NCBI RefSeq assembly: GCF_046267815.1
Contig: NZ_CP176528.1
Location: 8,698 to 48,697, forward strand
Direction of reading: 5' to 3'
Source: Noviherbaspirillum sp. ST 5-3
GTDB taxonomy: Bacteria > Pseudomonadota > Gammaproteobacteria > Burkholderiales > Burkholderiaceae_D
DNA: 40,000 bases
The notes below the pieces were generated by a model, which did not search any database, was not told the DNA's origin, and worked only from the letters and a program-made list of their open reading frames with translations. This document shows positions 28,861 through 32,419 of the stretch, in pieces. Position 1 is the first letter of the stretch. Every line of letters starts with the position of its first letter. The translations under genes and the position numbers were made by a program.

Positions 28861-29841
28861 GTGAAAGACGCTGCGACACCATCCGGGATAGAAACCGAGC
28901 TCGAAAAATATCGTCGCCTGTTCCGCTCGATGCCGGACTATGCGACCTTCTCCATTCTGAAGACGGGCGAGTTCATCGACGTCAATCCCGGCTTCGAACG
29001 GCTGACCGGCTATCGGCGTGACGAAGTCATCGGCCGGACCTCGGCCAGCATCGATCTCTGGGTGCATCCCGAACATCGCGCGGCAATTGTCCAGCGCTTG
29101 CAGACGACGGAGACGACCTCCATCGAGACCCAGTTCCGCGACCGCTCCGGCAACATCTACGACGTGGATGCCTCCATGGCCATCTTCAACGTCAATGGCG
29201 AGGCATTGCTGGTGGCGACGGCGCGCGACGTGACCGCGCGCAAGCGCCAGGAGCAGGAGCTGGAGCAGTACCGCACGACGCTCGAAAAGCTGGTGGAACA
29301 GCGCACCATGGAGCTGGAATCGGCGATGCAAAAGCTCAAGGACCTGGCGGCGCATGATGAGCTGACGGGCGTCGGCAACCGGCGCGACCTCAACACCCAT
29401 CTTGAGCAGGAATGCGCGACATTCAAGCGGCTGGCCGTGCCGTCGAGCGTCGCAGTGTTCGACCTCGACAACTTCAAGATGGTCAACGACCGTTACGGCC
29501 ACGCGGCCGGCGACGAAGTGATCAAGGCATTTGCGCAGATCATCCGGCGCGAAATGCGGGTCGTCGATTATGTCGCGCGTTACGGCGGCGACGAGTTCGT
29601 GCTGCTGCTGAAAGGAATCACGGCGGAGGCGGCGCTGGTTCCGCTGGGCCGCATCCGCGAGGCGGTGCTGGCACATCCGTGGTCAGCGCTGATTCCGGAT
29701 GTCGCGCTGACGACCTCGATCGGCGTGGCCTCCTTCCATCCGTCCGAATCGGCGGACGACACCTTCCGCCGCGCCGACAAGGCCTTGTATCAGGCCAAGC
29801 TGGAGGGACGCAACCGGGTTGTCATCGCAGCGGCCCCATAG
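28861..29841 (+). CDS. PAS-domain diguanylate cyclase (GGDEF)
   Basis: N-terminal PAS region (..GFERLTGYRRDEVIGRT..), a coiled linker, then the GGDEF domain (HDELTGVGNRR ... RYGGDEFVLLL). GTG start; a slightly later start is possible. Confidence 0.8.
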   Translation: MKDAATPSGIETELEKYRRLFRSMPDYATFSILKTGEFIDVNPGFERLTGYRRDEVIGRTSASIDLWVHPEHRAAIVQRLQTTETTSIETQFRDRSGNIYDVDASMAIFNVNGEALLVATARDVTARKRQEQELEQYRTTLEKLVEQRTMELESAMQKLKDLAAHDELTGVGNRRDLNTHLEQECATFKRLAVPSSVAVFDLDNFKMVNDRYGHAAGDEVIKAFAQIIRREMRVVDYVARYGGDEFVLLLKGITAEAALVPLGRIREAVLAHPWSALIPDVALTTSIGVASFHPSESADDTFRRADKALYQAKLEGRNRVVIAAAP

Positions 29842-29994
29842 AGCGCCTATCAAAATGCTACTGCGCAGCCCGATCCTGAACCTGCGATGCTCACCGTACA
29901 TCACGTACGGCTGCGCTTCTCGATTCAGGCTAGGGCTGCTCGCTACGCATTTTGAAAGGCACTCTTGGCAAGCGCGGCGAGTGCTCATTCGCAC

Positions 29995-30177
29995 TTAGCT
30001 GCGCTCGACGGATTTCCTGTCCGATGCAGACGGCTGCGGGCGCAGCGCAGCCATCACCACCAGGCGTATGAGTTCCCTGTTCGTCTCCGCGTCCTCCCGG
30101 CGGGGATGACGCGGCAGCAGGCCTGCCTCGATCGCTTTCTTGATGGCCGCCTGCAGCATTTCATCAGTGAGGTTCAT
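29995..30177 (-). CDS. Small hypothetical protein (60 aa), third gene of the leader-peptide operon
   Basis: MNLTDEMLQAAIKKAIEAGLLPRHP..., with GAGG 6 nt upstream of the ATG. It starts 31 nt after the stop of the upstream peptide gene. No TM segment and no family recognised. Confidence 0.4.
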   Translation of the reverse strand: MNLTDEMLQAAIKKAIEAGLLPRHPRREDAETNRELIRLVVMAALRPQPSASDRKSVERS

Positions 30178-30208
30178 GGCGTACCTCGTCCTGGAACGGT
30201 TGCTATGC

Positions 30209-30472
30209 TCAGAAGCTCGCGTTGGCGTTCGCAAACTGCGTCGGGCTGACATCGAGCTTGAGCGGGCCGAAGCCGGCACCGATCACGCCAACGTTGTTCA
30301 GCGCGTTGACGTTGATGTTCTGCAGCTGGACGATGTTCTGGTTCACGCCGACGTTGACGTTGGCTACCGGGCCGAGCCCGGCGAGCCAGGAATTGCCGCC
30401 GCGTACGGATGACATGCTCTTGCGGTCGAGTTCCCTGGTCTGGTCGAGGTCGTGAATCGTGATGTGCGACAT
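30209..30472 (-). CDS. Double-glycine-leader peptide B (87 aa; 26-aa leader + 61-aa Asn/Val/Gln-rich core)
   Basis: MSHITIHDLDQTRELDRKSMSSVRGG | NSWLAGLGPVANVNVGVNQNIVQLQNINVNALNNVGVIGAGFGPLKLDVSPTQFANANASF. AAGGAGA RBS upstream of this ATG. Confidence 0.7.
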   Translation of the reverse strand: MSHITIHDLDQTRELDRKSMSSVRGGNSWLAGLGPVANVNVGVNQNIVQLQNINVNALNNVGVIGAGFGPLKLDVSPTQFANANASF

Positions 30473-30535
30473 GCTGTTCTCCTTGAATGCGTTGCGAACG
30501 GGCGGAGGCATTCGGCGCCTCCGCCGCAAATTGGA

Positions 30536-30838
30536 TTAGTGGCCGAAGTTGATGGTGTTGGTGCCGGTCTGGTGCGGGTTCACGTTGGCCGTGATGTTGT
30601 CCGCGAAGGCGACGTTGTTGCCGTTGTTGACGAGCGTGTTCTGGCTCTGGCCCAGCGCTTGCGTGGCGCTGAAGTTGAAGTCGCTCTTCGAGATGTCGGT
30701 CATCGGGCCGAAGAAGGACGGCATGTAAGGCGATGCGCCGGAATATTTGCTCATGCCCGTGCCGCCATGCACGCTGGCCATGGCTTTGCGGTCGAGTTCT
30801 TCGTTGCGGACGAGGTCTTTGATGATCAAGGTTTTCAT
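30536..30838 (-). CDS. Double-glycine-leader peptide A (100 aa; 26-aa leader + 74-aa core)
   Basis: MKTLIIKDLVRNEELDRKAMASVHGG | TGMSKYSGASPYMPSFFGPMTDISKSDFNFSATQALGQSQNTLVNNGNNVAFADNITANVNPHQTGTNTINFGH. AGGAGA RBS. The leader is paralogous to that of peptide B. Confidence 0.7.
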   Translation of the reverse strand: MKTLIIKDLVRNEELDRKAMASVHGGTGMSKYSGASPYMPSFFGPMTDISKSDFNFSATQALGQSQNTLVNNGNNVAFADNITANVNPHQTGTNTINFGH

Positions 30839-30910
30839 TGCGTTTCTCCTGAAAGGAATTAAAGGATTCGGGGTTGGTGTAGCGCGTTTCCTTGCGCTTG
30901 AAGGACATAC

Positions 30911-30926
30911 AGCAGGGAGCGTGCCA
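30911..30926 (-). promoter_or_regulatory. Candidate sigma54 (-24/-12) promoter for the peptide operon
   Basis: The minus strand reads cTGGCACGctccCTGCTg. TGGCAC-N5-CTGC has the correct GG-N10-GC spacing, with one mismatch to TTGC. It lies about 70 nt upstream of the peptide A ATG. Confidence 0.45.
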
Positions 30927-31009
30927 GTTGCTGCGAGCGCACCGCGAAGCGCGCGCAAGCGCTTGAAAATAAAGGAGAAATTCGGATCAGGCCGGCACGG
31001 AAGCGGCGC

Positions 31010-31034
31010 GATGCTTGACATGCGGACAAGCATC
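31010..31034. promoter_or_regulatory. Perfect 8-bp inverted repeat, candidate activator (UAS) site
   Basis: GATGCTTG-N9-CAAGCATC, located about 85-110 bp upstream of the -24 element on the minus strand. Confidence 0.3.
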
Positions 31035-31204
31035 GCTGATGGGGCGGGGCCAACACATTGGGACGCACTGTTCGTTTTGGTGCAACAGCTGGTGACGCGT
31101 GGGATGGCACGAGGGGGTGGGCGAGCGGAAGCGGGTGGCTAGCACCCGCTACGGCCTTGTCCGTTTGATCATGACGACGCGATGCGCCGCCTGCGTGTGT
31201 GGCC

Positions 31205-32194
31205 TCAGGCTTTCGCGGCCCCGCATTCCGGATTCAGCAGATTGGCCGGGTGGCCGCCGGTGAGCGCGGCAATCAGATTGTTCGCCGCAGTGTTCGCCAT
31301 CGCGCGCCGCGTCGGTTCGGATGCGCTGGCGATGTGCGGCGTCAGCACCACGTTCGACAGGCCGAGGAAATCCGGATTGAGTTTCGGTTCGTTTTCGAAC
31401 ACGTCCAGGCCCGCCGCCGCGATCTTTCCCGATCGCAGCGCCGCGATCAATGCCACATCGTCAACAATGCCGCCGCGCGCAATGTTCACCAGCGTGGCGG
31501 TCGGTTTCATCAGCGCCAGCTCGGCGGCGGCGATCGTGTGATGCGAGGCCGCGGAGTAGGGCAGGACCAGAATCACGTGATCGGCATTGCGCAGCAGATC
31601 TTCCTTGCCGACATAGCGCGCATGGTTGGCGGCGCGTTCCAGGTCTTCGCTCAGGCGCGAACGGTTGTGATAGATCACCTGCATGCCGAAGCCGGTCGAG
31701 CGGCGTGCAATCGCCTGCCCGATGCGGCCCATGCCGATGATGCCGAGCGTGGCGCCATGCACATCCGCGCCGAGGAAGGCGTCGTAACGCCATTTCTCCC
31801 ATTTCCCCGCGCGCAGCCAGTGCTCCGACTCGGTGATGCGGCGCGCGGTTGCCATCAGCAGCGCCCAGCCGAAATCGGCGGTAGTTTCATTGAGCACGTC
31901 GGGCGTGTTGGTCACCATGATGCCGGCCTTCGTCGCCGCATCGAGATCGATGTTGTTGTAGCCGACCGCCATGTTGCAGATCGCCTTGAGCTTCGGGCAG
32001 GCTGCGATGGTTTGCGCCGAGACGCGCTCGCTCGGCGTGGTGTAGACGCCGTCCTTGTCGCGCATTTTCTGCGCCAGCTCCTGCTCGGAAAAGATGCGGT
32101 CTTCCTGATTCGATTCGATGTCGAAATAGTGCGACAGGCGCTCCAGTACGTCGGGAAAGACGGCGCGGGTGACGAGGATGCTGGGTTTGGTCAT
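31205..32194 (-). CDS. D-isomer-specific 2-hydroxyacid dehydrogenase (glyoxylate/hydroxypyruvate reductase-like)
   Basis: Start at MTKPSILVTRAV. NAD motif GIIGMGRIGQAIARR, then NIARGGIVDD and LTPHIASAS. The track ORF start at 32326 is an unsupported extension. Confidence 0.85.
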   Translation of the reverse strand: MTKPSILVTRAVFPDVLERLSHYFDIESNQEDRIFSEQELAQKMRDKDGVYTTPSERVSAQTIAACPKLKAICNMAVGYNNIDLDAATKAGIMVTNTPDVLNETTADFGWALLMATARRITESEHWLRAGKWEKWRYDAFLGADVHGATLGIIGMGRIGQAIARRSTGFGMQVIYHNRSRLSEDLERAANHARYVGKEDLLRNADHVILVLPYSAASHHTIAAAELALMKPTATLVNIARGGIVDDVALIAALRSGKIAAAGLDVFENEPKLNPDFLGLSNVVLTPHIASASEPTRRAMANTAANNLIAALTGGHPANLLNPECGAAKA

Positions 32195-32302
32195 GGCTAT
32201 AGGCGAACGCTGGCTGGGGTGCTGAAATACTAACAGAGCAGCGCCGCGCGCGTTTGCCCGTTCAGGTCGTCGTGCAGGACGCTTGCATGAACTCACTGCT
32301 CT

Positions 32303-32376
32303 GTCCACGGAATACACGGAAATCACGGAAAGAACCGGTGTTGCTTTTTTCCGTGATTTCCGTGTATTCCGTGGAC
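32303..32376. repeat. REP-like hairpin element, intact copy (about 29-bp perfect stem)
   Basis: GTCCACGGAATACACGGAAATCACGGAAAG - loop AACCGGTGTTGC - TTTTTTCCGTGATTTCCGTGTATTCCGTGGAC. It lies between the MCP stop (32420) and the dehydrogenase start (32194). Confidence 0.85.
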
Positions 32377-32419
32377 GCTCTGCTGTTTGCCTCCACGGCG
32401 CCGGCCTTCATGCAATCGC

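Follow-up and report, generated by a model that had tools for sequence, protein, structure and literature searches.

The subject of this report is a pair of small genes, pepA and pepB, which lie next to each other on the minus strand of a 40,000-nucleotide stretch of the Noviherbaspirillum sp. ST 5-3 genome (G000:C1:8698-48697, in a genome of 5.79 Mb on a single contig). The whole stretch is hereafter called the window, and positions refer to it unless given as genome coordinates. Together with a short downstream open reading frame (ORF), ORF3, the two genes are best explained as a three-gene satellite operon (pepA-pepB-orf3) of a dispersed sigma-54 regulon of double-glycine (GG) peptides. We give this explanation as a whole a probability of about 0.72. 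The genes and leaders are:

30536-30838, minus strand: pepA, 100-aa precursor, ribosome-binding site (RBS) AGGAGA
30761-30838, minus strand: pepA leader, residues 1-26, ending in GG, sequence MKTLIIKDLVRNEELDRKAMASVHGG
30209-30472, minus strand: pepB, 87-aa precursor, RBS AAGGAGA
30395-30472, minus strand: pepB leader, residues 1-26, ending in GG, sequence MSHITIHDLDQTRELDRKSMSSVRGG
29995-30177, minus strand: ORF3, 60 aa, basic and soluble, starting 31 nt past pepB

pepA and pepB are real, conserved coding genes, far beyond chance. Clustering at 90% identity leaves 61 (A) and 373 (B) homologue clusters, which are either unnamed or called 'hypothetical protein' and, where an organism name is given, come mostly from Noviherbaspirillum and other Burkholderiales. 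A first-pass annotation, made from the letters of the window, had described an adjacent minus-strand pair with strong RBSs and 26-aa GG leaders, and both coordinates and sequences agree with that description. It had named the loss of the GG junction, or of purifying selection, as a sign against the idea; the GG at residues 25-26 is invariant among the 25 A-type and 32 B-type sequences aligned, and dN/dS against paralogues and orthologues is 0.34-0.62 for A and 0.15-0.33 for B. As it had also said, the cores measure 74 and 61 aa, are free of Cys and hold two Lys (A) and one (B); they lack Arg as well, and core A has two His besides. Both cores are rich in N, Q, V and G (N+Q 20% in A and 26% in B), nearly without charge (pI about 5.9) and made of alternating polar and aliphatic runs. 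The view of the two peptides as paralogous double-glycine precursors, with cores unlike those of typical class II bacteriocins, is supported. Unmodified, the cores begin with TGMSK (A) and NSWLAG (B) and have predicted average masses of 7847.4 Da (7.85 kDa, A) and 6231.9 Da (6.23 kDa, B). Core A consists of a variable Y/P/S/G-rich linker and a conserved C-terminal domain, DFxFxASQxLGQSQNTLVNNGNNVAFxxxITANVNPxQTGxNTINFG, while conservation is very strong in core B, NSWLxGLGPVANVNVGVNQNIxQLQNIxVNALNNVGVIGAGFGPLKLDVSPxQ.

The membership of the operon in a regulon is based on its upstream region, whose elements are:

30911-30927, minus strand: sigma-54 promoter CTGGCACGCTCCCTGCT, with GG at -24 and GC at -12
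30956-30968, minus strand: IHF-like site TTTCAAGCGCTTG / TTTCAAnnnnTTG, between the activator site and the promoter
31050-31074, minus strand: candidate activator site CGAACAG-N11-GTGTTGG, an imperfect inverted repeat ~125-160 nt upstream of -24
30872-30900, minus strand: block of the 5' untranslated leader, ..GCAA..AAACGC(T)CACCAACC

In the 5.79 Mb there are exactly six occurrences of the motif CTGGCAY-N2-TCCCTGC, and each precedes the opening gene of a GG-peptide operon by 83-91 nt. The window promoter holds TGGCAC-N5-CTGC, with the exact spacing of -24 and -12 elements, and the promoter is kept before orthologues (L030, L032, L029, L021, G048, G119, G144, G100, G076, G134 and G037). At the IHF-like site, which fits the IHF consensus WATCAANNNNTTR, paralogous and orthologous promoters alike read TTTCAATGACTTR or AATCAATGACTTA, some 45-55 nt upstream of -24. 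In the form (C)GAACAG/CCAACAG-N11-13-(C/G)TGTTGG, the inverted repeat aligns in all six promoters of the genome and also in L029, L030 and L021; the block of the untranslated leader likewise aligns in 6/6 genome promoters and in L029 and L021. With this promoter, the upstream repeat, an activator gene (see below) and rpoN all present in the genome, the operon has the sequence features of a sigma-54-dependent one, and the activator would bind the inverted repeat. Another palindrome of the window, 31010-31034, was considered as the activator site and rejected, as it is not shared, unlike 31050-31074, by the five paralogous promoters.

The first-pass annotation had proposed that the leader be used to look for further precursors and transporters, and this has yielded about 15 precursors and one exporter. 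The precursors share a common leader, carry five types of core (A-E) and are encoded at five loci of the genome (genome coordinates):

38.9-39.5 kb (window): precursors A, B
1944.5-1945.5 kb: precursors A, A, B
2369.4-2372.6 kb: precursors A, B, C; D; A, B
2816.1-2817.1 kb: precursors A, A, A
5588.4 kb: precursor E

Type A is present in eight copies, the leaders of type C end in GG or GA, and type D is strongly cationic, with a pI of 12.

The window itself was said to hold no exporter, immunity gene or modification enzyme, and indeed no C39 or ABC gene is found in it: the four C39 matches of the genome all lie elsewhere. Only one of them belongs to a peptidase-containing ABC transporter (PCAT); the other three are stand-alone proteins of 264-341 aa and were rejected as exporters.

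Genome 2327586-2330699: PCAT, 1037 aa, two cyclic-nucleotide-binding (cNMP) domains followed by C39 and ABC exporter domains

Its C39 domain has the catalytic Cys, in the motif QAEEMDCGAACL. The protein scores below the cut-offs of TIGR01846, TIGR03796 and TIGR01193, the closest bacteriocin-exporter model being TIGR03796 (576 bits against a cut-off of 853). It is preceded by a gene for a PpiC-like protein that is related to TIGR04500, 'putative peptide maturation system protein', with a score of 96 bits where the cut-off is 180. Its 3' end is overlapped by the gene (genome 2330696-2331982) of a 428-aa sigma-54 enhancer-binding protein that has no receiver domain. In the structure of PCAT1 with its substrate, the leader forms a short helix that docks on the C39 domain with hydrophobic residues at -4, -7 and -12 (PMC6959990). 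The A and B alignments are invariant or nearly so at the same positions (-4 V/I, -7 M/L, -12 L), and by analogy the V at -4, M at -7 and L at -12 of the present leaders match the docking residues. The peptides have what is expected of PCAT substrates, namely a GG leader, the docking residues and a cognate, Cys-bearing PCAT in the genome, and cleavage after GG would be coupled to export by this protein. Separate from this system and unrelated to the GG peptides is a cluster at genome 4483326-4489407, which encodes a stand-alone C39-like periplasmic protein, two outer-membrane proteins, a MalT/LuxR-type regulator and a 165-aa secreted protein.

The largest peptide locus sits in a core cluster (genome 2365.3-2385.5 kb), in which the genes follow each other in this order:

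part 1: Pkinase-MORN kinase, PP2C phosphatase, pepC, pepB, pepA, SodC, pepD, pepB, pepA
part 2: divergent Pkinase-TM-DUF4384 kinase (TM, transmembrane), secreted Peptidase_C14 + FGE-sulfatase protein, two DUF4399 proteins
part 3: FHA-GAF-HD(GYP) protein, outer-membrane OEP (TolC family), FHA-FHA-TM protein, HlyD-type membrane fusion protein (MFP)

The FHA-FHA membrane protein is thus encoded between the OEP and MFP genes. Unrelated, metal-linked genes were noticed within the peptide arrays: a periplasmic Cu/Zn superoxide dismutase here (genome 2370875-2371417) and a cation-diffusion-facilitator transporter in G110. The DUF4399 proteins of the cluster carry a GHHH motif, and an FGE-type domain is found in the cluster too. 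Directly past the sigma-54 activator gene, genome 2331983-2334265 is a stretch of low GC content with foreign-looking small ORFs; it is probably part of an insertion that split the trio of PpiC-like, PCAT and activator genes from the core cluster, the two being contiguous in G100 and G110.

Two alternative roles of the peptides are raised by the neighbours in this cluster. The first is that they are precursors of peptides that are made on the ribosome and modified after translation (RiPPs), whose cores are modified by the PpiC-like or the caspase/FGE-sulfatase protein before or after export. The relation of the former to TIGR04500, the conservation of the secreted Peptidase_C14 + FGE-sulfatase protein in the cluster and the invariant Pro in the cores are consistent with it. 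However, the TIGR04500 score is under the cut-off, a prolyl isomerase alters conformation and not mass, the cores have no Cys, and the cluster is devoid of radical-SAM, YcaO, lanthipeptide, cyclase or other recognised RiPP enzymes; we hold this role to be most improbable. The second is that the peptides are autoinducers, sensed by the membrane Ser/Thr kinase through its periplasmic DUF4384 domain, which feeds back on the sigma-54 activator in a quorum-like manner. Indeed, the kinase gene is always divergent from the peptide operon, the PP2C gene ends that operon, the activator lacks a receiver domain, some of the leaders weakly match ComC, and GG peptides are pheromones in Gram-positive bacteria (PMC7595303). 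Yet cores of 40-74 aa, in five types and up to eight copies, go far beyond what a signal needs, and the high gene dosage and strong RBSs suggest a bulk product, so that a signalling role has a slim chance in our view.

In relatives, the parts that are scattered in this genome are found together. One metagenome contig (L025/L029) has the whole system inside a span of about 15 kb:

L029 order: PpiC-like, PCAT, activator, Ank protein, unknown gene, Pkinase-MORN, PP2C, five peptides, divergent Pkinase-DUF4384

The same cluster was recovered by tblastn with the proteins of this genome in G048, G119, G144, G100 and G110, the last two having it in compact form (about 21 kb). The peptide order is preserved, and the order of types A-B-(D)-A-B-C recurs in several genera. 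In at least eight genomes the PCAT lies 5-30 kb from the peptides. Co-occurrence was evaluated in 151 genomes of the same GTDB family, from 64 genera, with E<1e-160 defining an orthologous PCAT. The B profile is present in 15 of the 151 genomes (9 of 64 genera) and the orthologous PCAT in 25; peptide B occurs in 15/25 PCAT-positive and in 0/126 PCAT-negative genomes. Five PCAT-positive, B-negative genomes were checked, and every one has ORFs in which this leader heads other cores (C, D, E and a new SNYNVHNVNY type); these ORFs mostly lie next to the PCAT and follow TGGCAC-N5-ATGC. Hence leader, promoter and PCAT orthogroup travel together, with cores that vary. Outside the family, a B peptide was found in only four genomes of two other families (401 genomes of the order). 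The shared leader and promoter within the genome, together with the physical linkage in relatives, lead us to assign the distant PCAT as the cognate exporter. For the export route and the protease, which had been left open in the first-pass annotation, there is now a single cognate PCAT, joined by an MFP and an OEP, and relatives show these genes in physical linkage with those of the peptides.

A mechanism can be proposed along these lines. The activator encoded beside the PCAT would bind the inverted repeat and, with bending by IHF, would switch on sigma-54 transcription at all six operons together. The PCAT would then dock the leader helix through its hydrophobic residues at -4, -7 and -12 and cut after GG, and the cores of A (7.85 kDa) and B (6.23 kDa) would leave through the PCAT and the MFP/OEP channel. 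The presence of the kinases, PP2C, FHA proteins, HD-GYP and cNMP domains suggests control at the post-translational level and by second messengers, in which kinases, phosphatase, FHA proteins and cyclic nucleotides may gate transcription, export or both.

Searches of databases place the peptides in a family of their own. pepA, pepB and ORF3 have no Pfam or NCBIfam family assignment, and the NHLP and Nif11 leader models of NCBIfam are unmatched by pepA and pepB, with one chance match only at E<=10. Bacteriocin_IIc (PF10439) matches the leader of pepB alone, at 15.3 bits and below its gathering threshold of 27.1 bits, and does not match pepA; among the 32 B-type members, 23 leaders have sub-threshold matches to Bacteriocin_IIc (best E 0.0036) and 11 to ComC. 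The Curlin repeat (PF07012) has no match at E<=10 in the Pfam search, and the N-terminus is a GG leader, not a Sec signal. Profile searches of the PDB with the A and B families returned none at E<=10, and an Rfam search of window 29500-31400 returned none either. Against 1.84 billion representative proteins the B profile found only 84 matches, nearly all of 55-120 aa, and in none of them is the B core a domain of a large protein. One metagenome protein, P0198, has a B-type core (..GGPLANVNVGVSQNIEQFQKVDVNTLNNVGSIGPGFGPL..) behind a lipoprotein-type signal peptide (LAAVGTGC) and no GG leader, which suggests that the core acts outside the cytoplasm whichever route it takes. All in all, the peptide family is uncharacterised, being without a Pfam or NCBIfam model, a PDB relative or a paper that we could find.

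The two cores had been described as module-swapped in the first-pass annotation. Profile-profile comparison (hhalign) of the A and B families gave instead a collinear alignment over 77 columns (probability 98.9%, E 3e-17). With the leaders removed, the best match pairs A27-50 DFNFSATQALGQSQNTLVNNGNNV with B12-35 NVNVGVNQNIVQLQNINVNALNNV (E 1e-3) and the second pairs A60-64 VNPHQ with B49-53 VSPTQ, both of them collinear, and the FGP...TQ match on which the swap had been based was not recovered. The module-swap reading is therefore rejected, and the A and B cores are diverged, collinear homologues. The first-pass annotation had also suggested that the cores may resemble beta-solenoid or functional-amyloid subunits. 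AlphaFold2 (AF2) monomers built from the family alignments reach a pLDDT of 49.8 (A) and 43.6 (B) with no core fold; their sole helix, of low confidence, covers residues 13-24 of the leader.

As to what the mature peptides do, we tentatively favour, at somewhat below even odds, self-assembly outside the cell into a matrix or fibre, of which A would be the major component and B, C and D minor ones, over a role as microcin-like toxins, signals or RiPPs. Verified microcin immunity genes are immediately adjacent and encode TM helices (PMC12219008). No small conserved TM ORF is found beside the operons of this genome or of five relatives, the only hydrophobic ORF being an antisense shadow of pepA (see below), and this absence argues for a structural and against a toxic role. 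So does the conservation of the B core, which exceeds that of the leader (majority-residue frequency 0.89 against 0.71) at a dN/dS of 0.15-0.33, as do the fixed set and order of types across genera, the multiple copies of A and B and the hairpin at every A|B junction. Cores that are rich in N, Q, V and G, almost uncharged and without an AF2 monomer fold point the same way, and there are precedents in EbfG1-3 and MccAB1, in which amyloid is formed from GG-leader peptides.

The competing possibility, that the peptides are class II microcin-like bacteriocins which leave through the PCAT, MFP and OEP, kill competitors and are countered by an immunity other than an adjacent small membrane protein, is unlikely in our estimation. 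The GG leader, the mature size of 6-8 kDa, the absence of Cys and the dedicated PCAT, MFP and OEP are all as expected of such microcins. There are also many paralogues with differing cores, the leaders weakly match Bacteriocin_IIc and ComC, type D is cationic, and class II microcins are reported to be common and diverse in sequence in Gram-negatives (PMC12219008). Against this, besides the lack of an adjacent TM immunity ORF in this genome and five relatives, the satellites hold only A+B or A+A+A, the cores are conserved across genera and not diversifying (B core 0.89), the set and order of types recur, and the leader has 26 aa, as opposed to 15 aa in the microcin signals of A. baumannii (PMC13188072).

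Several points weigh against the explanation that we prefer, that is, a sigma-54 satellite operon whose peptides are exported to build a matrix. The structural role rests on the absence of immunity genes and on composition. MccAB1 is a microcin that is both toxin and amyloid, so that the toxin and fibre readings overlap (PMC13188072), and type D, with its pI of 12, resembles many antimicrobial peptides. A distance of 2.29 Mb separates the PCAT from the window, and one of 35 kb separates it from the core cluster. A peptide-type promoter was not found before the machinery genes, except for a weaker TGGCAC-N5-CTGC before the MORN kinase gene. Finally, at the activator step, the inverted repeat is degenerate in some genera (G048, G119, G100, G110 and G144), where its TGTTGG half-site is kept. 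The weaker sigma-54-like promoter upstream of the Pkinase-MORN gene lies at about genome 2368200 and reads TGGCACTAAAGCTGC, with CTGGCATCGAAGATGC in G048 and G119; going by this motif, the kinase may also be sigma-54-dependent.

Comparison with known systems helps to separate what is familiar from what is new. Class II microcins of the CvaAB/TolC type (MccV, MccL, MccN) are likewise small, Cys-poor GG-leader peptides that are cleaved by a C39-ABC protein and exported through an MFP and a TolC-like channel (PMC12219008, PMC10233263). In contrast, the present system has no adjacent immunity gene, a 26-aa leader and conserved, fixed cores of several types, and it comprises sigma-54 satellite operons, Ser/Thr kinases with PP2C and FHA proteins and a PCAT with two N-terminal cNMP domains. 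In Synechococcus elongatus PCC 7942, EbfG1-4 are several small GG-motif proteins encoded in one operon and secreted by the PCAT PteB; they belong to the biofilm matrix, three of the four form amyloid, and the paralogues differ in role (PMC4997328, PMC9981879). The likeness to EbfG is one of description, and it concerns another phylum and another regulation, with the matrix role here being a proposed one. MccAB1 of Acinetobacter baumannii (PMC13188072) and MccE492 are PCAT-exported GG-leader peptides too, and MccAB1 self-assembles into amyloid and promotes biofilm; however, it is toxic and has an immunity protein and GAV motifs, whereas the peptides here are Asn/Gln/Val-rich and have no immunity candidate.

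Curli (CsgA/CsgB) and Fap (FapC/FapB) offer a further parallel, with Asn/Gln/Gly-rich beta-strand subunits, the major and the minor one encoded together, that stay unfolded until export. Their subunits have Sec signal peptides and dedicated outer-membrane channels. The present system instead has a one-step, PCAT-type type I secretion system, and its peptides have no Curlin_rpt match. PCATs with cNMP domains are also known from systems with NHLP/Nif11-type leaders (TIGR03796/TIGR03797). The PCAT described here is nearest to TIGR03796 and yet below its cut-off, its peptides have no NHLP/Nif11 leader, and a nitrile-hydratase-like domain is absent. Lastly, type VI secretion is controlled by threonine phosphorylation through PpkA, PppA and Fha1. 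Both systems encode a Hanks kinase with a periplasmic domain, a PP2C phosphatase and FHA proteins together with a secretion machine, but the machine here is a type I/PCAT exporter, with an FHA-FHA membrane protein between the OEP and MFP genes.

Export of GG-leader peptides by a PCAT is of a known kind. What sets the present system apart is the sigma-54 control of dispersed satellites, the coupling to Hanks kinases, PP2C and FHA proteins, the cNMP-domain PCAT and a conserved cargo of several types without immunity genes. Literature searches that combined the components found no description of the system, nor a report of a PCAT-type type I exporter combined with sigma-54, Hanks kinases, PP2C, FHA, HD-GYP and cNMP-binding domains. 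The cluster is a new and conserved one, with about 12 machinery genes and 5-9 peptide genes, whose peptide families are without a Pfam or NCBIfam model, and it illustrates that orphan GG peptide genes can be assigned to a distant exporter via a shared promoter and leader, which aids annotation in Gram-negative genomes. If the cargo is a fibre or matrix, the findings on EbfG and MccAB1 would be extended to a dedicated, non-toxic system and to a simple secretion route for self-assembling peptides; if it is a toxin, the result would be a microcin family without canonical immunity. The fibre idea can be taken further, to a version that we consider doubtful: an unrecognised Gram-negative route to functional fibres, in which conserved Asn/Gln-rich subunits from scattered sigma-54 operons are held in an export-competent state by the PpiC-like protein and are cut by and pass a cNMP-gated PCAT/MFP/OEP under a Thr-phosphorylation switch. 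In this version A would be the major subunit and B, C and D minor or nucleating ones, and the two Hanks kinases, PP2C and the FHA proteins would switch both transcription and secretion. If this is true, curli and Fap would be joined by a third amyloid/fibre pathway, which would also be the first case of FHA/kinase control over a type I system.

The spacer between the two peptide genes contains a further element:

30501-30525, minus strand: intercistronic GC-rich hairpin just past the pepA stop, 10-bp stem, centroid -20.5 kcal/mol, no U tract

Every A|B junction has such a hairpin after the A gene, and the A|A junctions have none; the stems have 9-11 bp (-20 to -28 kcal/mol) and differ in sequence. 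It probably has a role in the ratio of A to B transcripts, which it would raise, or in the stability of the mRNA.

ORF3, which had been singled out as the only linked gene, is so within the window, but this was misleading for the system, as it is specific to one locus. The protein has a pI of 9.7 and no hydrophobic stretch. Two of 20 congeners have pepA-pepB-orf3 in the same place, flanked by PAS-GGDEF and 2-hydroxyacid dehydrogenase genes as here, and their ORF3 is 86% (G552) and 71% (G541) identical. Noviherbaspirillum sp. UKPF54 and N. autotrophicum carry the closest homologue of A, together with a B gene, at a different site, with the same promoter and without ORF3. ORF3 is missing from the other peptide operons of the genome and from the satellites L030 and L032, and its one paralogue (genome 5612191-5612331) is unlinked. 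Being conserved at this locus and missing elsewhere, with an unlinked paralogue, ORF3 is taken as a real gene that is an accessory of the window locus only. As an immunity gene it was rejected, since it is soluble, basic and missing from all other operons. Another candidate, the hydrophobic 59-aa antisense ORF 30549-30728 (plus strand) within pepA, was taken for a shadow frame and rejected. All A paralogues have it (maximum 19-residue Kyte-Doolittle value 2.0); its GC3 of 0.98 is due to third positions that coincide with those of pepA, and its richness in Leu to the richness of pepA in Asn.

Two repeats of the window lie outside the operon. Between the stops of the GGDEF gene and ORF3, positions 29840-29966 hold a repeat of ~115-125 nt with no Rfam match, which adjoins no other peptide operon; six other copies are present in the genome at 71-94% identity (among them 448312-448425 at 92% and 5472565-5472690 at 89%), and it occurs in congeners too. 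A REP-like hairpin region at 32274-32378 is 78-87% identical to genome 4688940-4689012 and 2342398-2342501, and these matches elsewhere in the genome make it a member of a repeat family.

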